Positions 6,982 to 52,508 of a stretch of 64,000 nt of DNA are shown one piece after another. Positions within the stretch are counted from its first letter, which is position 1, and each line of letters starts with the position of its first letter. The notes under the pieces are model-generated. The model saw only the letters and a program-made list of their open reading frames with translations. It was not told where the DNA came from and made no database searches. Source of the stretch: a virus (Duplodnaviria; Heunggongvirae; Uroviricota; Caudoviricetes); IMG/VR virus record IMGVR_UViG_3300046003_006038, positions 1-64,000 of that record; one strand, written 5' to 3'. The position numbers and the translations under genes were made by a program.

Positions 6982-6993
6982 AATGTTATCTTG

Positions 6994-7045
6994 TTTTAAT
7001 TATTGATACCTAAATATAAGAACTATTCTAATCAAAGGCAACTAT
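6994..7045 (-). promoter_or_regulatory. phage-family promoter element
   Basis: ttttaattattgatacctaaatataagaac...gcaact. Confidence 0.6.
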
Positions 7046-7261
7046 TTTTAAACTATTTTTATCTACTGAGGTTAATTTATTTTCTACTGTCCTTAAGACT
7101 GCTTCATCATTCTGATCAAACATCTCTAATAAGACTCCTATAACTCTCTTTCCAAAGAACTTATCTGTGCCTTCATAAACCATTCCAATCATTGGAGAGG
7201 AAGTCTTAGCGACTTTCCTCCCTTTGACCTTCCATGTTCCTCTTAAATCTCCATCACTCAT
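7028..7261 (-). CDS. hypothetical early protein
   Basis: ORF in track. Confidence 0.55.
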   Translation of the reverse strand: MSDGDLRGTWKVKGRKVAKTSSPMIGMVYEGTDKFFGKRVIGVLLEMFDQNDEAVLRTVENKLTSVDKNSLKIVAFD

Positions 7262-7458
7262 TAGGATGCCTTTGCTAACTCTTCTTGAACATTCTCTAAT
7301 GCGATCTTATAACCAAAGTTGATTGCCATCTGCATTAATAAAATATCCATTGAACCATTATTGGCTTTAGCAAATGCTTCAAGATCTTCTCTTGTGTTAG
7401 GAGTTGCTACAATACCTCTTGATAACATTTTGAACTGCTCTTCGAAAAACTTTTCCAT
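7261..7458 (-). CDS. hypothetical early protein
   Basis: ORF in track; ATGA overlap with downstream gene. Confidence 0.55.
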   Translation of the reverse strand: MEKFFEEQFKMLSRGIVATPNTREDLEAFAKANNGSMDILLMQMAINFGYKIALENVQEELAKAS

Positions 7459-7466
7459 AACTTATT

Positions 7467-7518
7467 TGTTTTAATTATTGATACCTAAATATAAGAAATA
7501 TAATTGTAACTAGCAACT
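7467..7518 (-). promoter_or_regulatory. phage-family promoter element
   Basis: Conserved motif copy. Confidence 0.6.
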
Positions 7519-7519
7519 T

Positions 7520-7879
7520 TTATTCATCATCTCTTTCTTCATCATTTGCTCTTTCTAGCTCAACTAAATCATCTGCTTCTCCAAAGTCCATAAAGGTATT
7601 CTCTAAAGCTTCTCTAACATAATCTAAATTCAATCCAATACTTTCTACTTCCAATCTATTACCATAACTGATATTAAATTCAACTGAAGTATAATCTACA
7701 ATCTCTTCTGTATTCCTTTCAAAGCTACCGATAACTTTATCAATTGCTCTTTCAATATCATCTACTGAGATTACTCTTCCTCCTCCTTCAATTGAATTGA
7801 TAAGATTGATAACATCTTCTTTTGAAAAGATTGAAGATGCTGAATTCTGAACTGACTGTAATACTAATTCTTTTTTCAT
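7520..7879 (-). CDS. hypothetical acidic protein
   Basis: ORF in track. Confidence 0.55.
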   Translation of the reverse strand: MKKELVLQSVQNSASSIFSKEDVINLINSIEGGGRVISVDDIERAIDKVIGSFERNTEEIVDYTSVEFNISYGNRLEVESIGLNLDYVREALENTFMDFGEADDLVELERANDEERDDE

Positions 7880-7889
7880 AATGTTATAT

Positions 7890-7940
7890 GTTTTAATTAT
7901 TGATACCTAAATATAAGAACTTTATCTTTATGAGGCAACT
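7890..7940 (-). promoter_or_regulatory. phage-family promoter element
   Basis: Conserved motif copy. Confidence 0.6.
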
Positions 7941-7948
7941 TTATTTTA

Positions 7949-8218
7949 CTAAGCTTTTTTTATTTCTTTTAAAAATTCCTCTAACATATCTTCATCTGAA
8001 TTATGATACCCTAACTGACTGAAGAAGTTAGTTTCTAATTTTGAAATCAAATCTGTAAAAGATTCTATTGAATCAATTTCAAATAACATTTCCCCAAGAT
8101 TTGAATAATGATTTCTAAATTCTTCTTTCTCTAAAGGAAGATCATCTGCAAAGATGTTGTACATTTCAATTGCAGATTCTTTCAATACTTGTTTTGCTGT
8201 ATATAATAAATTTGACAT
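7949..8218 (-). CDS. hypothetical protein
   Basis: ORF in track. Confidence 0.55.
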   Translation of the reverse strand: MSNLLYTAKQVLKESAIEMYNIFADDLPLEKEEFRNHYSNLGEMLFEIDSIESFTDLISKLETNFFSQLGYHNSDEDMLEEFLKEIKKA

Positions 8219-8227
8219 AATATATTG

Positions 8228-8277
8228 TTTTAATTATTGATACCTAAATGTATGAACTTTAATTCAATTGAGCAACT
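8228..8277 (-). promoter_or_regulatory. phage-family promoter element
   Basis: Conserved motif copy (variant ..aaatgtatgaac..). Confidence 0.55.
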
Positions 8278-8280
8278 TTT

Positions 8281-8538
8281 TTAAACTAAACATTTAAAAG
8301 AAGTTTCAAAATAAACACTACTTTTTACAGCTTGTCTAACAGCATAGATAGCATCCAATAATTCTTCATACTCAAAGACATACATAGGAAGTTTTGTTTG
8401 CATATTGCTGATTGAGAAACTTGTCCTGTTGTGGTTAATTAGAGTGTAATCTAAAGTTTCTCCATTTGAGCGTACTTCAAGATTTTTTTTATTACCCATG
8501 TAATCACTAACTCCGATAACTGCTACTAATTTTGACAT
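8281..8538 (-). CDS. hypothetical protein
   Basis: ORF in track. Confidence 0.55.
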   Translation of the reverse strand: MSKLVAVIGVSDYMGNKKNLEVRSNGETLDYTLINHNRTSFSISNMQTKLPMYVFEYEELLDAIYAVRQAVKSSVYFETSFKCLV

Positions 8539-8549
8539 AATATATACTG

Positions 8550-8600
8550 TTTTAATTATTGATACCTAAATATACGAAATAGATTAGTAACTAGCAACTA
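8550..8600 (-). promoter_or_regulatory. phage-family promoter element
   Basis: Conserved motif copy. Confidence 0.6.
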
Positions 8601-8611
8601 TTTCACAAACT

Positions 8612-8642
8612 ATTTTAACCCAAAAAGGCCCCTAATAGGAGC
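8612..8642 (-). terminator. rho-independent terminator
   Basis: Minus strand: GGGCUCCUAUUAGGGGCC hairpin followed by UUUUUGGG. Confidence 0.5.
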
Positions 8643-8667
8643 CCTTTCTTCGATCAATAATTAAAAA

Positions 8668-9456
8668 CTATTCAGCTAAAGTGTGCTGAACAATATTTTC
8701 TCGTAGTCCATAAACTTGATCAATTATAGAACTAACGTTTACATTTTCTTCACTTGATGTACTACCTCCATGAGCAAAAGTAAGTACTGCAGTACCTTTC
8801 TTACCTGACTTAGAAACATCAATCAACTTAATATTAATTACAGTTGGAGTGTAGTTGTACTTCAATTGAATACCTTTTCCTTTGACAAACTCAACTCCAC
8901 CATTCTTTAAATCGAATTCAATTTTTTCTCTTTCTATAACTCTAATTAACTCTTGAACTTCTCTAACCTCTCTTCCTACTTGTTCCATTTCTTTATACAC
9001 TGCACTATATTCTTCTCTGAAAGAAAGCACAGCTTCATTTGCAGCATCAATTATTTTATCTTGATCATTCAAAACAATCTCTGCTAAATCTCCTAACATT
9101 CTTAATCTTTTTAATTCGAAAGAGTCAACTCCTTTTGTAGAAGTAGTATAGTAAGATAAATCAATTCCACTATAACACTTGTTACTTTTCACTCCATCAA
9201 AATTCCAATTCTCTCTTAAATTTAAACTAAATAATTCTTTCTTGTAAGAGTAATCTGGATGATCTGCTTTGAAGTAAACAGACCCTCTAGTTACTTCAAT
9301 GTAAGCATAAGGACTAAATCCTGAGAAGAAAGGAAGTAAAGCATCTGAAATTGCTTGTTGCTCTCTTACGTAAATGTCCCCTCTTTTGTTTTCTATTAAT
9401 TCTTTTTGAGCTGTAAGGATTGCTCTTTGATCCTCTAATAAACTTAATCTTGTCAT
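8668..9456 (-). CDS. hypothetical protein (262 aa)
   Basis: ORF in track. Confidence 0.6.
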   Translation of the reverse strand: MTRLSLLEDQRAILTAQKELIENKRGDIYVREQQAISDALLPFFSGFSPYAYIEVTRGSVYFKADHPDYSYKKELFSLNLRENWNFDGVKSNKCYSGIDLSYYTTSTKGVDSFELKRLRMLGDLAEIVLNDQDKIIDAANEAVLSFREEYSAVYKEMEQVGREVREVQELIRVIEREKIEFDLKNGGVEFVKGKGIQLKYNYTPTVINIKLIDVSKSGKKGTAVLTFAHGGSTSSEENVNVSSIIDQVYGLRENIVQHTLAE

Positions 9457-9464
9457 GATGTTAT

Positions 9465-9515
9465 ATGTTTTAATTATTGATACCTAAATATATGAACATT
9501 GATCCTAATAAGCAA
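9465..9515 (-). promoter_or_regulatory. phage-family promoter element
   Basis: Conserved motif copy; the ~80 bp region is duplicated at 10021-10100. Confidence 0.6.
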
Positions 9516-9548
9516 CTATTTTAACAACTTTTTTTAAACTTTTTTTAG

Positions 9549-9635
9549 TAGTCAGGACAGGATTTGAACCTGTATCTTTATGTTGCCTAGTATTTTTACC
9601 GTACAACTTGCGTCTACCAATTCCGCCACCTGACT
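9549..9635 (-). tRNA. tRNA-like gene, type II (tRNA-Leu-like D-arm), non-canonical anticodon region; possible pseudo-tRNA
   Basis: Minus strand AGTCAGG-TG-GCGGAATTGGTAGACGC...ACAGG-TTCAAAT-CCTGT-CCTGACT-A. It has a perfect 7-bp acceptor, a Leu-type D-arm and a canonical T-arm. No 5-bp/7-nt anticodon stem-loop can be drawn in the 36-nt middle segment. No encoded CCA. Confidence 0.5.
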
Positions 9636-9649
9636 GTTTTAAAAACCTA

Positions 9650-10012
9650 CTACGATAATTTTCGTAGTAAGTACTTGTAAATATCCTCTGAAGTAATGTC
9701 TAACTTCATATCAGTACAGAATGCTTTAATAACATCAAACTGATCTTCAGGATCTGAAACTAAATCAATGCCGTCTACATTTATCAAACATTGATTACCT
9801 TGAGCATCTTGAACTGCATACAAAGTGTCATTAGGCCAGTTTAGATGATTCTCTACTGCAAATACAGTACCTTGCATACCTACTAAAAATGCCTCATTGT
9901 GCTCAGTATTCTTAAAACCTAACAATCTGAACATGTCATCGTAAGTTGTATAAGTTCTTCCTGGATTAGTAATTACTACTTTGCTTCCTACTTTAATTTT
10001 TGAATTTGCCAT
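9650..10012 (-). CDS. hypothetical protein
   Basis: ORF in track. Confidence 0.55.
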   Translation of the reverse strand: MANSKIKVGSKVVITNPGRTYTTYDDMFRLLGFKNTEHNEAFLVGMQGTVFAVENHLNWPNDTLYAVQDAQGNQCLINVDGIDLVSDPEDQFDVIKAFCTDMKLDITSEDIYKYLLRKLS

Positions 10013-10024
10013 GATTTTTATTGT

Positions 10025-10075
10025 TTTAATTATTGATACCTAAATATATGAACATTGATTCTAATAAGCAACTAT
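10025..10075 (-). promoter_or_regulatory. phage-family promoter element
   Basis: Conserved motif copy. Confidence 0.6.
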
Positions 10076-10108
10076 TTTAACAACTTTTTTTAATTTATTT
10101 TTAAACCC

Positions 10109-10408
10109 TTATTTCAGGGCTTTTAATATTTCTCTCTCAGCATCATTTGAAACTGATTTACTTTTTGATCCGATATGCCATGTTACATACTGATCCCTTT
10201 CTAACGGACGACCTTCCTTCCAGTCGTAAATACAAAATACTTCCCCTTCGTTTGTTTCCATTTCCCATTCGAAATTCGTTTTGTCCTCTCCCGTATTATA
10301 TTCCATGGTCGGCTCTCCGAATGCTGAAATTAATTGATCAACTGTTGCTCGAATTACAACTCCGTGAAATGATGTCCCGTCAGTGTTTTGATAAGTCTTT
10401 TTTGCCAT
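10109..10408 (-). CDS. hypothetical protein
   Basis: ORF in track. Confidence 0.55.
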   Translation of the reverse strand: MAKKTYQNTDGTSFHGVVIRATVDQLISAFGEPTMEYNTGEDKTNFEWEMETNEGEVFCIYDWKEGRPLERDQYVTWHIGSKSKSVSNDAEREILKALK

Positions 10409-10414
10409 GATTTT

Positions 10415-10475
10415 ATATGTTTTAATTATTGATACCTAAAGATAAGAAAAAGGCCCCGAAGGGCCAACCCTTTTG
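10415..10475 (-). promoter_or_regulatory. terminator-promoter unit (GGCCC-UUCG-GGGCC hairpin + U-run, then family promoter)
   Basis: aaaaaggccccgaagggccaaccctttt on the plus strand. On the minus strand the hairpin is followed by UUUUUCUU and TATCTTTAGGTATC. Confidence 0.6.
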
Positions 10476-10479
10476 TCAA

Positions 10480-10737
10480 TTATTTTTTAAAAGTTTTTCT
10501 ATTGGCTGTAAATGAGATAACCTCGTTTAAGTTAACAAATCTGAAGTCTCTTTTCTGCATATCGTATACAGTTAGTAAATTCTTTTCGGAAGGACTGAAA
10601 GAATGTCCAACTCCTTTAACTCCTTTTCTAACCCCTCTCATGGCATTCATTTTTCTAAGACTCCCATCTTTTTTAACAAAAGTTACAGAGAAGATTTTCT
10701 TGTTAGCAGTTTCTTGTAATAGATTTTCTACGATCAT
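10480..10737 (-). CDS. hypothetical basic protein
   Basis: ORF in track. Confidence 0.55.
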   Translation of the reverse strand: MIVENLLQETANKKIFSVTFVKKDGSLRKMNAMRGVRKGVKGVGHSFSPSEKNLLTVYDMQKRDFRFVNLNEVISFTANRKTFKK

Positions 10738-10744
10738 GATTTTA

Positions 10745-10800
10745 TATGTTTTAATTATTGATACCTAAATATAAGAAGAAGCCTCCGAAGAGGCAACTTT
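10745..10800 (-). promoter_or_regulatory. terminator-promoter unit (GCCUC-UUCG-GAGGC hairpin overlapping the -33 TTG)
   Basis: gcctccgaagaggcaacttttttt; same arrangement at 23843 and 61985. Confidence 0.6.
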
Positions 10801-10802
10801 TT

Positions 10803-11099
10803 TTAGATATTTTTTATAACTAATTTCAAATAGATTGGACGAATCTTACCACACTTTAATCTAGAAGCCCACCCCTCTTCTTCCAAAGCTGACTGTATAT
10901 CCTTTACAGATAATCCTTCTCTATGGAGAGCTACGATTCTAATTTTCATAGAATCCTCTTTTGGTTTCTTTTCTACAGTAGCTCCTTTGATATTTTTTTC
11001 AACAAGTGCTTGAAGATCTTCAGTCTTCATCATGTGAGCTGGTTTAGCAGTTTGAACATTTAAACTTTTTACTTGTGCAATTAATTCTGATCTTGTCAT
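10803..11099 (-). CDS. hypothetical protein
   Basis: ORF in track. Confidence 0.55.
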   Translation of the reverse strand: MTRSELIAQVKSLNVQTAKPAHMMKTEDLQALVEKNIKGATVEKKPKEDSMKIRIVALHREGLSVKDIQSALEEEGWASRLKCGKIRPIYLKLVIKNI

Positions 11100-11104
11100 G
11101 ATTT

Positions 11105-11160
11105 TATATGTTTTAATTATTGATACCTAAATATATGAACTTTAATAATGTGATGCAACT
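11105..11160 (-). promoter_or_regulatory. phage-family promoter element
   Basis: Conserved motif copy. Confidence 0.6.
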
Positions 11161-11345
11161 TTTTTTACAACTTTTTTTGAAAAATAAATTTGATAGTCAC
11201 AAATTAATTCAATAGCCTCATCTTCATCTAACTCTCCAAACTCTTCTTCATAGTTGTAAAGTATATCAGATAAGTAATCAAAATCTTCCACTTCTTTCTG
11301 AGTTAGGTTGTGAGCATCTAACCATTTGAAAACTTGTACTTTCAT
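11142..11345 (-). CDS. hypothetical acidic protein
   Basis: ORF in track. Confidence 0.5.
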   Translation of the reverse strand: MKVQVFKWLDAHNLTQKEVEDFDYLSDILYNYEEEFGELDEDEAIELICDYQIYFSKKVVKKVASHY

Positions 11346-11349
11346 AATA

Positions 11350-11405
11350 TATTGTTTTAATTATTGATACCTAAAGATAGTAAATTATATAACGTGAGAC
11401 AACTT
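11350..11405 (-). promoter_or_regulatory. phage-family promoter element
   Basis: Conserved motif copy. Confidence 0.55.
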
Positions 11406-11562
11406 TTTTTCAATTAATTTAATCCCATCCCTTGCTGGGCCATTAATACTACTAGATCTTGAGGATCAAAAGACATGTGAGTGATTCCTCTTAATGTGAC
11501 TGAATAATATACCAATCCTCCTAATGCTACTGTTTTTTCCATAACCTTTTATTTTTTTAGAA

Positions 11563-11784
11563 TTAATCTTCTTGAACTGTGAAAATATAAGTACCTACCT
11601 GAACCCTCTTACCTATCAAATCTTCTATATAGTAACTTCCTTCATCTGTCATGAATAATTGGTCATCAGTCCAATCCTCAGGAGTAGTAAGTAATTTAAA
11701 CAAGTCAACATCTTTGTACTGCTCTGTATTACCCCAATTGTCTACTACCTCTTCACATTTATTGATTTTAATTAAATCTTCCAT
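11563..11784 (-). CDS. hypothetical protein
   Basis: ORF in track. Confidence 0.55.
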   Translation of the reverse strand: MEDLIKINKCEEVVDNWGNTEQYKDVDLFKLLTTPEDWTDDQLFMTDEGSYYIEDLIGKRVQVGTYIFTVQED

Positions 11785-11789
11785 AATCT

Positions 11790-11845
11790 ATATTGTTTTA
11801 ATTATTGATACCTAAATATAAGGAGAAATATTATTACTAGCAACT
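11790..11845 (-). promoter_or_regulatory. phage-family promoter element
   Basis: Conserved motif copy. Confidence 0.6.
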
Positions 11846-12232
11846 TTTTTCTAAGTTATTTTCATTAATAACAAATACTTTATCAGCCCATGTCTTAGCA
11901 TTGACAGATCTATACTGTGCCTGGTCCATTAGATTTGTATTATAGAATAAACCATTAACTGTCCCTACAGTAAGATCCTCAGCTATCTTTTCATCTAATA
12001 TAATTACTTTAGTTCCTTTCTTAGCAAATACTGTCATCCAATGATTAGTTCCTTCAGCTTTGAATTGAATAGTCTGAAGAGCTCCTTTCTTCCATCTAGT
12101 AAGGCTAGGTAATTCAGAACCTATCTCAGATGCTATCATAAAGCCTGCTTGTACCTTTACTATGGCCTGAAATCTACCTTTTCTTTCTCCAATGAAATTT
12201 ACTAACTGTAATCCTTTGATGTTGTTTACCAT
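11837..12232 (-). CDS. hypothetical protein
   Basis: ORF in track. Confidence 0.55.
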   Translation of the reverse strand: MVNNIKGLQLVNFIGERKGRFQAIVKVQAGFMIASEIGSELPSLTRWKKGALQTIQFKAEGTNHWMTVFAKKGTKVIILDEKIAEDLTVGTVNGLFYNTNLMDQAQYRSVNAKTWADKVFVINENNLEKSC

Positions 12233-12237
12233 GATAT

Positions 12238-12290
12238 ATGTCGTTTTAATTATTGATACCTAAAGATAAGGAATTGTATAATATGAACCA
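12238..12290 (-). promoter_or_regulatory. phage-family promoter element
   Basis: Conserved motif copy. Confidence 0.55.
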
Positions 12291-12365
12291 ACTATTTACT
12301 ATAATATTTTCCTATTAAAAGTATACCTGCCATAAATAAAATATATTAAAAAAACTTTGTGAATT

Positions 12366-12905: not shown

Positions 12906-12944
12906 CAACTTTTTATTAATCTTTTTTTTAACCCCCTCCTGCAA

Positions 12945-13540
12945 GGGGGGAAGAGATGGGGAGAGGTAACGGGTAGCTAGAACGGGTCTCTATCGGGTCT
13001 CTAGACGGGTAACAAAACGGGTTACTAGCCCGGGTTACCAAACGGGTAGCTAGAACGGGTATCTCCTTACACTCTCTCCCTGTCCCCTATAGGTACCGGT
13101 ACCAAACGGGTATCATAACCGGGTATCTCCTTACACTATAAGACAGTATATTACCTCTTATATAGAAAAAAACTATTAGGGAGGCACATACCCCTCATTT
13201 TCCTTATACTTATTTTACCTAGCCTTTTACCTTCTTCTACACATCGTATATACTATACAGTACCTTTTCATACCTACTACCATATGTCTTTATACTCTTT
13301 ACTAGGTTTTACTACTCTTTATGTTTAATCAGAGTCCTTAACCTTTTATTATGTATCTCAGCAGTTCTCCCTATGTCTCTCCTTATATCTCTCCAGCTCT
13401 ATATGTATGTATATTCGGGTAATGGGCCGGGACAGAAACGGGTAATTGAATGGGTATCGGACCGGGTCGCAGACCAAGGAGCCTGCTTAGGCTTCGCCGT
13501 TGGTAGACGGGTCTCTTAACGGGTTTCTCTATAGGATTGT
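12945..13540. repeat. iteron region: at least 15 copies of (A)ACGGGT-type heptamer in two clusters flanking a pyrimidine/AT-rich 280-bp core; candidate replication origin or pac region
   Basis: aacgggtagctagaacgggt occurs twice; gggtatctccttacact occurs twice. More ACGGGT/CCGGGT copies at 13437-13530. No credible ORF. Confidence 0.55.
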
Positions 13541-14230: not shown

Positions 14231-14384
14231 CTTGTACAACTAAATAAGGTTTATCATTCTCTGTCTTTTTTATTGTACCCCTTTGTATTAATTCCTGAGT
14301 ACCTTGAGGATCTTTCTGAGACATTATTAGGATTGTCTCCTCCATGTAAATTACTTTCATACTACTTTTATTTAGCTTTTTAAC

Positions 14385-14460
14385 CTCCTACAACTCGGAG
14401 GGTTGGGAGAATTTGCGCGTGACACCTTCGGTAAGGAGAGAGAAGCGCCCCTCCTTCCCT
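14385..14460. repeat. GC-rich structured element, copy 1 (core 14409-14454, shared with 49972-50017)
   Basis: gaatttgcgcgtgacaccttcggtaaggagagagaagcgcccctcc is ~88% identical to the second copy. It has an internal dyad CACCTTCGGTG flanked by C-rich and G-rich tracts. Confidence 0.6.
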
Positions 14461-14466
14461 AAGTCT

Positions 14467-14565
14467 CTAGATTGAATCAATCTGTTCCTGTGTTAAACTA
14501 TCTCTCCATTCTTGTACATACTTCTCATCTTCGTCAAGTAATGCCTGTAATTCTTCTTCTGTCAT
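14467..14565 (-). CDS. acidic micro-ORF (32 aa)
   Basis: Hand translation MTEEELQALLDEDEKYVQEWRDSLTQEQIDSI; lies between the mini-HTH gene and element copy 1. Confidence 0.3.
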   Translation of the reverse strand: MTEEELQALLDEDEKYVQEWRDSLTQEQIDSI

Positions 14566-14580
14566 AACCTTTATTTTTTA

Positions 14581-14703
14581 TTAAGAATTAATAACCCTAC
14601 AAACCCATGCTTGAGAAACATTAAGTCTTTGTGCAATAATAGAAGTTGTTAAATTTTCATTAAAGAATAAATCCTTTGCCATTTGTGTTTTTGTAATTTT
14701 CAT
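14581..14703 (-). CDS. mini helix-turn-helix DNA-binding protein (40 aa)
   Basis: Hand translation MKITKTQMAKDLFFNENLTTSIIAQRLNVSQAWVCRVINS; classic HTH (TTSIIAQRLNVSQAWVCRVI). Family promoter immediately upstream. Confidence 0.5.
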   Translation of the reverse strand: MKITKTQMAKDLFFNENLTTSIIAQRLNVSQAWVCRVINS

Positions 14704-14705
14704 AA

Positions 14706-14760
14706 CCTTTATTGTTTTTAATTATATCTAAATATACGAAAAAAGAGCTGCGCTAGCAAC
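14706..14760 (-). promoter_or_regulatory. terminator-promoter unit (GAGUUGC-UAGC-GCAGCUC hairpin + U-run, family promoter)
   Basis: aaaaaagagctgcgctagcaactcttttatt; near-identical copy at 15485-15515. Confidence 0.55.
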
Positions 14761-49629: not shown

Positions 49630-49929
49630 TTATTTCTTCTTAGGGTAGTACTTTCTCTTCTTCTTAGTAGGTGTTGTTACTATGTCTACAAGATCTTTTG
49701 CCAACTGCTGTGACTCTTCCTGTGTGGTAGGTGTATTTGTTACCTTGTCAATTTCTTTGATAAGTTCTTTTGCCGACTCTGTAAGACGGGCTTTTGTAGT
49801 ATCCGGGGTAGTTGGAGTATCCTCTTCCATACTCTTTAACGTAGGCTGGTCTTTTGTTAGATAGTACCCAACTCCTGCCGACATTAACACTATAGATACA
49901 ATTAGGATGATAATTTCAATTCCGTTCAT
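49630..49929 (-). CDS. membrane-anchored protein with Thr/Pro-rich and basic C-terminal tail
   Basis: N-terminal TM helix; TPTTQ repeats; KKKRKYYPKKK. Confidence 0.55.
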   Translation of the reverse strand: MNGIEIIILIVSIVLMSAGVGYYLTKDQPTLKSMEEDTPTTPDTTKARLTESAKELIKEIDKVTNTPTTQEESQQLAKDLVDIVTTPTKKKRKYYPKKK

Positions 49930-49940
49930 ATTGCTTTGTT

Positions 49941-50025
49941 TTGTCCCCCCTCCTTGGGTGGGGTGTTAGTAAAATTTGCGCGTGGCACCTTCGGTGAGGA
50001 GAGAAAGCCCCCTCCCCCCCTGCCG
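49941..50025. repeat. GC-rich structured element, copy 2 (core 49972-50017)
   Basis: aaatttgcgcgtggcaccttcggtgaggagagaaagccccctcccc; paired with the copy at 14409-14454. Confidence 0.6.
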
Positions 50026-50225
50026 GTCCTTACTTTGCTTTTGATTCTTCTGTTGAAGCTTTTCTATATTCTGTGATTAATTTCTTAACCTCTCCAATTG
50101 CTTTACGTGCATTGGCTTGTGACTTCTTAGTTGTTCCGTTGTGTTGTGCAACGAATTCTTCATACAACCCATCAATCTTTTCGAATAACTCTTGTTTGTT
50201 CATTTTGTTTGATTTTAAATTAGTA

Positions 50226-52168: not shown

Positions 52169-52238
52169 AAACTAATTTTAATTTTATAACTTATTTCTAT
52201 TAATATAAACTATTTTTTTCTAATATGCAACTATACTG

Positions 52239-52508
52239 CTAAAACTTATTGTCTAGATACGGTACACCCATAAAACCATGTATCCCTTCGTTTTCTAATT
52301 GTATCTCATACTGCTGCCAGTCTTCAGGTGATTGTGTTAAATCTCGCCAAGCAACATCGACACTGTATTTATCTGAGATTATAAAACCCTCTTCGTCCTG
52401 TATAATATGCCCTATTTCTACTATACTATGTAAATGGTACCCCAACTGTTGTATCTTTTGTTGAGCTTGTTGTTGTGTATCAAATTCGTATTTTGCAATT
52501 CTTATCAT
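52239..52508 (-). CDS. hypothetical protein
   Basis: ORF in track. Confidence 0.55.
   Translation of the reverse strand: MIRIAKYEFDTQQQAQQKIQQLGYHLHSIVEIGHIIQDEEGFIISDKYSVDVAWRDLTQSPEDWQQYEIQLENEGIHGFMGVPYLDNKF

Follow-up and report, generated by a model that had tools for sequence, protein, structure and literature searches.

Structured RNA signals placed between cistrons are a known kind of phage element. Phage T7 carries RNase III sites, with R0.3 in a leader and the others between genes; the nut sites of lambda, the boxB-boxA leaders of rrn operons and the put sites of HK022 act on transcription elongation; and GC-rich palindromes such as the yeast mitochondrial GC clusters offer a further comparison. 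We describe here a GC-rich element that occurs twice in a 64-kb stretch of DNA (the window: positions 1 to 64,000 of IMG/VR virus record IMGVR_UViG_3300046003_006038) from a relative of Flavobacterium phage immuto, the overall composition of which is 34% GC. Comparison with relatives gives good support to the view that the element is a real, conserved, cis-encoded structured RNA of ~62 nt on the sense transcript, with a stem-loop that does not terminate transcription. It lies outside every specific family that could be tested, and its broad known kind is that of the phage intercistronic structured RNA signals.

An original prediction had singled out a duplicated GC-rich element in the window, and both a pattern scan and a covariance model bear this out by recovering exactly two copies. 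The degenerate 30-nt pattern matched at these two sites and nowhere else in the window, with 0 matches expected (100 shuffles), and covariance model R1, run with filters off, returned just the two units listed below, the runner-up scoring 10.8 bits. For both copies the minus strand is the transcribed strand, and the neighbouring genes likewise run on the minus strand. The identity of 88% first claimed was close, at ~85% over the 46-nt span (40 of 47 aligned columns), but the span itself was too short: similarity extends over ~63 nt, from the hairpin base right past the stop codon to the end of CAAAUU. A near-identical sequence occurs in the 164-kb metagenome contig Ga0255098_1000002 (L312, L321), which carries copy 2 without any change (L321). 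The parts of the two copies are as follows.

49969-50031, minus strand: copy 2, whole unit (hairpin, mini-hairpin and box); RNA AAGGACCGGCAGGGGGGGAGGGGGCUUUCUCUCCUCACCGAAGGUGCCACGCGCAAAUUUUAC; model R1 57.5 bits, E-value 2.5e-14.
50008-50029, minus strand: copy 2 outer-stem 5′ strand GGACC (50025-50029), internal loop GGCA and G-rich 5′ arm GGGGGGGAGGGGG (50008-50020).
49993-50007, minus strand: copy 2 apical loop CUUUCU (50002-50007) and pyrimidine-rich 3′ arm CUCCUCACC (49993-50001).
49986-49996, minus strand: copy 2 mini-hairpin CACC-GAA-GGUG, the CACC of which also serves the base of the long hairpin, hence alternative pairings.
49971-49985, minus strand: copy 2 single-stranded invariant box CCACGCGCAAAUUUU.
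49945-49965, minus strand: copy 2 optional second hairpin CACCCCACCC-AAG-GAGGGGGG (C-rich 5′ arm, G-rich 3′ arm), after which come an A-rich leader and an AUG at 49929.
14406-14468, minus strand: copy 1, whole unit; RNA AGAGACUUAGGGAAGGAGGGGCGCUUCUCUCUCCUUACCGAAGGUGUCACGCGCAAAUUCUCC; model R1 42 bits, E-value 7.6e-10.
Parts of copy 1, minus strand: G-rich arm 14448-14459; loop 14442-14447; 3′ arm 14430-14441; mini-hairpin 14423-14433; box 14409-14422.
14385-14409, minus strand: copy 1 second hairpin CUCC-CAAC-CCUCCGA-GUUG-UA-GGAG, followed by a leader and an AUG at 14360.

In RNA sense the consensus runs from a stop codon through GGACC-GAGA-GGGGAGGGGG, a loop (usually GCGY plus an A-rich or CU-rich stretch) and CCUCCUCACC-GAA-GGUG-YCACGCGCAAAUUU. 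The long hairpin is imperfect, with 15 bp in all: its outer stem (GACC with GG(U)GUC) leads through a 4x3 internal loop to a 10-bp stem in which a purine-rich (G-rich) 5′ arm faces a pyrimidine-rich (CU-rich) 3′ arm, so that the main stem pairs the ‘GGAGAGA’ side with the ‘GCCCCCTCC’ side. Double-sided compensatory changes were found at 12 of the 15 pairs and 87.9% of cells were paired (104 sequences, 70 distinct), compared with 44–64% in shifted registers and a value as high in 0 of 500 shuffles; the alignment behind these counts was fitted to the model's own structure, which biases them toward that structure. Compensatory changes are also seen in the raw sequences, from A-U to C-G in the marine group, from G-C to A-U in copy 1, and from A-U to U-A in the outer stem of L308. 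G-U and U-G pairs make up about 13% of the paired cells in the sense orientation, and because these would be A-C mismatches on the complement, the sense strand is the folded strand, most simply as RNA. The stems thus co-vary, which makes the element structured rather than a product of chance. The long stems that had been drawn from the flanking tracts (cctcc...ggaggg and cccccctcc...ggtgggg) did not survive the comparison, since these tracts form the separate and dispensable second hairpin, which is missing at many orthologous loci (‘short forms’) and in copy 1 has an inner stem with insertion variants among relatives.

The dyad CACC-TTC-GGTG noticed at the outset is present and co-varies among relatives, where it forms a 4-bp mini-hairpin, CACC-GAA-GGUG, that has its CACC in common with the long-hairpin base. 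Besides CACC/GGUG we found the co-varying forms CAAC/GUUG (L047, L051b) and CUCC/GGAG (L309b, L271b), and in every one of these lineages the 5′ partner in the long hairpin remains complementary. A fold that combines the upper stem with the mini-hairpin pairs 97.1% of cells, with double changes at 8 of 10 pairs. Two mutually exclusive helices are both maintained, and therefore the element may be bistable. Loops of the main hairpin are 5-11 nt long and GCGY-rich, and they may form a pseudoknot with the tail (GCGY loop with RCGC tail, or an A-run in the loop with a U-run in the tail). A change to loop UUGAG with tail CUCAA in L007 is suggestive, while three sequences without the loop GCG retain the box, which weighs on this idea. 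A long-range alternative fold of the G-rich arm with a downstream CUCCC is the minimum free energy (MFE) fold at some loci of contexts 2 and 3 (described below) and is impossible in the short forms.

The stem-loop is followed by an invariant box, CACGCGCAAAUU, or YCACGCGCAAAUU in RNA sense. Its columns C-A-C-G-C-G are identical in 43-44 of 44 sequences, it is predicted to be unpaired both in the consensus structure and in the MFE folds of most of 33 variants, and the hexamer CACGCG in RNA sense occurs nowhere else in the window besides the two copies, nor in 100 kb of immuto. An unpaired box that stays invariant across phages with 66% GroEL identity, together with the covariation of the stems, implies a specific molecular partner. 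A bistable, context-independent RNA that reprogrammes polymerase in the manner of put or nut, or an embedded small RNA in which the CACGCGCAAAUU box targets a conserved host factor, is a tentative picture that would be compatible with these properties.

Homologues number >100 in viral and metagenome contigs, which excludes a chance duplication and puts an end to the concern that no further copies might exist. The phages that carry the element in their mRNAs form a group of aquatic Flavobacterium-type phages. An exact 24-nt pattern recovered 44 IMG/VR loci and a metagenome scan 57 additional element loci, and we also sampled by way of neighbouring proteins to avoid the circularity of a motif-based search. 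Among 80 loci encoding an Hc1-like protein, 64 have the element 0-8 nt past the hc1 stop codon, and the 16 without it are the most distant. Most of those 16 hold an ordinary hairpin with a U-tract instead (L110, L112-L126), as does Cellulophaga phage phi38:1; no element was found in phi38:1 or Bacteroides phage DAC23, both of which encode GroEL. Since distant relatives have canonical terminators at the orthologous place, the site is a transcript-boundary position. The first and commonest context is after hc1, downstream of groES-groEL; the end of the groES-groEL unit is the probable ancestral position. The second context is the early-region site of copy 1, which is filled in some relatives (L249, L256) and empty in others (L260, L259, L261); in L254 a promoter lies directly 5′ of the element, which thus opens the transcript as a 5′ leader. 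The copy-1 site has decayed in immuto, L258, L265, L257 and L255 to a remnant without the 3′ arm and mini-hairpin, with the box drifted in two of the five. The immuto remnant (L128 14710-14753; MW353176 64710-64753) consists of the G-rich arm and GCGC, then the box, and in remnants of this type the G-rich arm now codes for the ...RRGR* C-terminus of a small membrane protein. Intact copies number two in the 64-kb window and one in 100 kb of immuto.

In the third context the element lies in-frame within a small open reading frame (ORF; ...L[KR]GWGFD-[element]-C[SH]Y[SG]GL...), in two reading frames in different contigs, and conservation is therefore at the nucleotide rather than the protein level. 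These in-ORF loci are L284, L271, L309, L295 and L288; in the L284 type the GWG codons themselves make the G-rich arm, and the in-ORF contigs have a second copy 0.6-0.75 kb upstream with a CUCC/GGAG mini-hairpin. In the fourth context, that of a marine group, groEL is followed by two 56-aa ORFs, the element, and then a terminator-like hairpin with a U-rich tail; GroEL of this group has 66% amino-acid identity to the window GroEL, and the element is still downstream of groEL. A KOW label for the 56-aa upstream ORF was not significant (13.4 bits; cut-off 22.3). Spacers between stop codon and stem include 0 and 4-8 nt and the indels are not multiples of 3, so that this part of the element is non-coding because the indels break the frame. 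A coding sequence was rejected for the element as a whole because of the frame-breaking indels and the frames that differ between types.

The patchy occupancy of these sites raises the question of whether the element is a mobile or recombinationally promiscuous GC-rich palindrome that acts as DNA or single-stranded DNA, maybe as an HNH homing target, which we consider a rather improbable account. The same site is empty in L260, L259 and L261 and filled in L249, copies decay, and insertion into ORFs is in-frame in two different frames. An internal direct repeat, ACCGARAGGNG...ACCGAAGGUG, lies on either side of the core palindrome, the element is GC-rich within a 34% GC genome, and in L051 an HNH endonuclease gene lies between two same-orientation copies. 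Each genome has only 1-3 copies, however, no associated transposase was found, and filled and empty sites show no clean target-site duplication, so that the polymorphism and in-frame insertion of mitochondrial GC clusters, Rickettsia palindromic elements and miniature inverted-repeat transposable elements are present without their many copies and target-site duplications. Long persistence at the orthologous position downstream of groEL, with compensatory changes, also speaks against mobility, and the many G-U pairs and strict sense orientation point to selection on RNA. At L051 1712-2369, a gene for a 171-aa HNH-type endonuclease, with a weak HNH Pfam match, is inserted at the element site; of the two flanking copies, the upstream one differs in its stem, lacks the mini-hairpin and has ACGCGCAUUUUUUU as its tail. 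This arrangement suggests that the conserved element is targeted or duplicated by a homing cassette.

From the range of contexts we infer that the element behaves as a self-contained sense-strand RNA module with a function independent of particular neighbours. The original prediction had offered a protein-binding operator, an RNA regulatory or processing motif, or the conserved ends of small RNAs, and the second of these (or an embedded small RNA) is the best fit, given the co-varying stems and G-U pairs on the sense strand only. Our preferred reading, which we hold tentatively, is a transcript-processing or stability signal of the T7 RNase III-site kind, since placement in a leader (L254), between cistrons and ahead of terminators parallels that of the T7 sites. 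At the end of groES-groEL-hc1, the stem-loop past the stop codon would be a barrier to 3′ exonucleases and/or a double-stranded substrate, and a sequence-specific factor or an endonuclease may recognise or cut the adjacent box and A/U tract. With read-through of transcription preserved, the upstream RNA, with the chaperonin genes, and the downstream RNA, with the small membrane-protein genes, would then fare differently. CAA|AUU agrees with the loose RNase E preference RN|WUU. Several observations weigh against such a signal. The helix of the main type, at ~15 bp with a 4x3 internal loop, is short for RNase III (~20 bp in the marine group), and a simple stabiliser needs neither an invariant GC-rich box nor a co-varying alternative helix. 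There are 1-3 copies per ~160-kb genome compared with 10 sites in the 40 kb of T7, and in the marine group the terminator-like hairpin that comes at once after the element makes a separate 3′ barrier seem redundant. One context places the element in-frame inside an ORF, and the decayed copy in immuto itself indicates that it is dispensable.

The box could instead act in trans. An mRNA-embedded small RNA, stabilised by its 5′ structured domain and presenting the unpaired box as a seed or aptamer surface for a conserved host RNA or protein, seems to us a possibility of low probability. Such an RNA would be as context-independent as the element is (5′ leader, intercistronic, in-ORF and 3′-untranslated-region-like), its 12-14-nt unpaired stretch is extremely conserved across the phages with 66% GroEL identity, and the marine-group order of stem-loop, single-stranded box and terminator-like hairpin with a U-rich tail is the classic layout of a small RNA. 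Extra copies decay, as they would for a dosage-redundant gene. The 3′ hairpin or terminator is missing in many short forms, though, and most loci are without a dedicated promoter. Nor did a search of the window and 100 kb of immuto find any complementary target of the box over background.

Among the remaining accounts, several depend on the genes and promoters around the two copies, which are listed here.

50030-50203, minus strand: 57-aa Hc1 histone H1-like protein (Pfam PF07432, 24.1 bits, cut-off 23.5), last gene of the groES-groEL-hc1 unit, upstream of copy 2, which its stop codon (50030-50032) abuts.
49630-49929, minus strand: 99-aa protein with an N-terminal hydrophobic helix, downstream of copy 2, annotated as ‘FliL-like’ in immuto.
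14467-14565, minus strand: 32-aa ORF upstream of copy 1, the stop codon of which (14467-14469) overlaps the first bases of the model match.
14729-14759, minus strand: host-type (Bacteroidota) promoter TTGC-N19-TTCGTATATTTAG, ~250 nt upstream of copy 1.

The shared context first proposed, with a tiny ORF upstream and a small membrane protein downstream, holds in its first half, as both copies lie 3′ of a small ORF (32 aa, and the 57-aa Hc1). An obvious N-terminal membrane helix is found just in the protein after copy 2; copy 1 is followed by 46-aa and 68-aa ORFs. The 32-aa ORF is kept in L249, L256, L257, L258 and L260. The promoter at 14729-14759 is predicted to drive a 40-aa helix-turn-helix (HTH) ORF (14581-14703), the 32-aa ORF and the copy 1 element. 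It belongs to the genome-wide type TTGC-N19-TTCnTATATTTAGG (also written TTGC-N19-TATATTTAGG), often with the leader TATCAATAATTAAAAC attached, which is unrelated to the element: by the sigma-A criterion for Bacteroidota (TTG at -33, TAnnTTTG at -7, ~19-nt spacing), a sense-strand scan lists 14759, 15508, 12908 and others, none of them in the element, and the earlier view that the element does not match this promoter stands.

Proximity of copy 1 to a promoter brings in the elongation-control RNAs of the lambda nut, rrn boxB-boxA and HK022 put type, in which a nascent hairpin and box would bind RNA polymerase or a phage or host factor. We regard this as unlikely, and as equally doubtful the effect that it would have, an altered pausing or read-through of downstream terminators in a unidirectionally transcribed genome. 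There are 1-2 copies per genome, as with nutL/nutR and putL/putR; copy 1, like nutR, directly follows a stop codon, and it lies ~250 nt from the promoter, with a tiny HTH gene of Cro size ahead of it; and in L254 the promoter is directly upstream. The order of hairpin then linear box is that of the rrn leader, a largely neighbour-independent function would suit four contexts, and terminators lie downstream (49114-49094; immediately after the element in the marine group). HK022 put RNAs consist of two neighbouring stem-loops, ~65-70 nt in size, which contact RNA polymerase directly and prevent termination in cis; the alternative fold of the element contains two adjacent stem-loops. The box itself argues otherwise. 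A CRISPR-associated boxA motif, detected in several phyla that include Bacteroidetes, is a close match to the E. coli consensus GCUCUUUAACAA (PMC7665894), and in our own comparison CACGCGCAAAUU fits only ~3-4 of the 8 core positions of E. coli-like GCUCUUUAACAA, so that boxA was rejected; the supplement of that study gives no Flavobacterium boxA. No boxB-type GNRA-like pentaloop was seen, as the loops are GAA or 5-11-nt GCGY-rich, and the first 100 kb of the 160-kb immuto record contain no recognisable gene of N-like, Q-like or NusG-like type. The nearest promoter-like site is ~2.2 kb from copy 2, and in-ORF copies would be translated through.

The HTH gene next to copy 1 had also suggested that a DNA-binding protein of the phage, for example the 40-aa HTH, might use the element as a duplex-DNA operator, an idea that now has very little probability. 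The box is sequence-invariant and persists in decayed copies without the hairpin, and short palindromes (GTGTCAC, GCGC, AAATTT) occur. The HTH gene, however, is missing or unlinked at most element loci (e.g. L249, L254), the box is without dyad symmetry and no extended dyad exists, two of the five decayed copies show box drift, and a duplex-DNA site leaves the stem covariation with G-U pairs unexplained. In immuto DNA all G is replaced by a 7-deazaguanine derivative (PMC10516641), which alters major-groove recognition. Lacking N7, this base also disfavours a DNA G-quadruplex, H-DNA/triplex or CSB-II-like R-loop, as does the fact that the G-run co-varies as a stem.

A GC-rich hairpin right past a stop codon, where relatives have canonical terminators, might serve at the operon end as a terminator or attenuator of an unusual kind, whether weak, factor-dependent or regulated. 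A 3-7-nt U-run follows 8-10 nt past the stem, e.g. ACGCGCAUUUUUUU in L051 and ACGAAAUUUUUUU in L080, and a mutually exclusive helix pair is typical of attenuators, yet we think this account very unlikely. At 10 + 3-5 bp and G/C-rich the hairpin is what a terminator would have, but no U-tract lies 0-2 nt past the stem: a 9-nt GC-rich spacer, ACGCGCAAA, separates the stem from any U-run and would form a strong RNA-DNA hybrid. As had been claimed from the missing U-tract, the element is therefore not a canonical terminator; the terminator scan lists neither copy and finds canonical sites nearby, neither of the alternative folds sets a hairpin beside the U-run, and in L254 the element is at the transcript start. 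Canonical hairpin and U-tract terminators occur elsewhere in the genome, including the one at 49114-49094.

No Rfam family matched the element. A search of the window with Rfam 15 at the gathering threshold found only a tRNA and left the element unmatched, and local E-value searches of both copies and five variant loci gave only noise (E at least 0.5, far under the cut-offs). The 16-base pattern ACCGAAGGTGNCACGCG in cellular genomes (596 Gb, ~280 chance matches expected) occurred only in GC-rich bacteria, at model scores of 19 bits or less, as chance matches. Co-varying stems and invariant unpaired nucleotides are also features of riboswitches, but a riboswitch would go with the genes of one pathway and with an expression platform (a terminator or sequestration of the start site), and the four unrelated gene contexts, one of them in-ORF, the variable distance to the next AUG and the lack of an adjacent terminator at most loci set the element apart from known riboswitches. 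Translational control of one downstream gene was rejected because the next AUG may be as near as ~15 nt or well over 100 nt away and because some copies are in-ORF, and readthrough, frameshift or bypass because the frame across the element differs by type and the stop-to-stem spacing is variable. The 3′ end of 16S rRNA with helix 45, which we take to be ACCGGAAGGUG...CACCUCC, has a likeness to CCUCC...ACCGAAGGUG that is at chance level (rough expectation ~0.3), with the parts in the wrong order.

Other features of the window were noted along the way. The promoter/leader cassette AAAAAGTTGC-N19-TTCnTATATTTAGG(TATCAATAATTAAAAC) is present on the minus strand in 13 near-identical copies before small early ORFs; cassettes lie at 6993-12291, with single sites at 12908, 14759, 15508, 17443, 19677, 20982, 21416, 22619, 23859 and 40251 (minus strand). 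It fits the Bacteroidota TTG / TAnnTTTG type, resembles the PeSL cassettes of T4-type phages, and often has a terminator hairpin within its -33 element. The groES-groEL-hc1 unit, which extends to copy 2, probably starts at a promoter-like variant, TTGCATATTAGAAAAAAATAGTTTATATTAA, that lies between groES and the gene for DNA polymerase (52170-52240, minus strand). Just before the promoter at 12908, a C-rich/G-rich hairpin, CCCCCCTTGCAGGAGGGGG (12927-12945, minus strand), is followed by an A-run rather than a U-run and is similar to the optional second hairpins. About 900 nt downstream of copy 1, the ORF-poor ~600 nt at 12950-13540 (minus sense) contain 18 ACCCG cores, 9 of them as ACCCG(T/A)T, e.g. 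GCTACCCGTTTGGTAACCCGGGCTAGTAACCCGTTTTGTTACCCGTCTAGAGACCCGATAGAGACCCGTT; ACCCG is nearly restricted to this region within the window, which looks like an iteron array and is a candidate replication origin or partition site. The Rfam tRNA call at 9549-9635 (minus strand) scored 43.5 bits with a 31-nt insert compared with 17 in the model, and ARAGORN found no tRNA in the window; it is probably a long-variable-arm tRNA like the tRNA-Ser annotated in immuto.

The element adds a well-supported structured RNA family that is new to Rfam 15, with co-varying stems, a co-varying exclusive second helix and an unpaired, near-invariant box. Gene regulation in Bacteroidota phages is almost uncharted; their hosts have unusual promoters and rarely use Shine-Dalgarno pairing, and to our knowledge they lack Hfq. 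We know of no described counterpart, among phages of Bacteroidota, to a put/nut-like RNA or a box-seeded small RNA. The element also marks borders of shuffled gene cassettes and the insertion of an HNH gene, and may thus help to explain the mosaicism of these phages. Because immuto and its host Flavobacterium sp. LMO8 have both been isolated in culture, the function of the element is directly testable.

Set against described systems, the element resembles the T7 RNase III signals (R0.3, R0.5, R1.1 and others), which are likewise irregular hairpins with an internal loop, found between cistrons, right behind stop codons and in leaders of a phage genome that is transcribed in one direction. In both cases the copies are homologous to one another and non-terminating, and the hairpin can stay as a protective 3′ end. 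The element differs in its shorter helix (~15 bp in the main type, compared with ~20 bp of irregular double-stranded RNA in a T7-type site), its 1-3 copies per ~160 kb and the absence of sequence similarity, and it adds an invariant GC-rich single-stranded box and a co-varying mini-hairpin; RNase III cuts T7-type sites specifically, to defined ends. With lambda nutL/nutR, rrn boxB-boxA and HK022 putL/putR it has in common two copies per genome, a hairpin with a conserved linear box (in the rrn order), a location in a leader or directly behind the stop codon of a small early gene, and neighbour-independent action. It differs from them in a box that is not boxA, a loop that is not a boxB-like GNRA-type pentaloop, the lack of an identified N-like factor, the distance of copy 2 from a promoter and the copies in ORFs. 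Yeast mitochondrial GC clusters and Rickettsia palindromic elements, with IS200/IS605-type hairpin ends as an additional comparator for a mobile origin, are also GC-rich palindromic islands in AT-rich genomes, optional, in-frame in ORFs and decaying; the element, in contrast, has a very low copy number, long orthologous retention with compensatory changes, a non-palindromic invariant box and sense-strand G-U pairs. The PeSL cassettes of T4-type phages differ in that the element carries no promoter or terminator and is distinct from the window's own promoter cassettes (at least 13 repeats). Like them, however, it is a conserved regulatory module that borders cassettes of small genes within a hyperplastic early region, and it is a likely substrate for recombinational shuffling.

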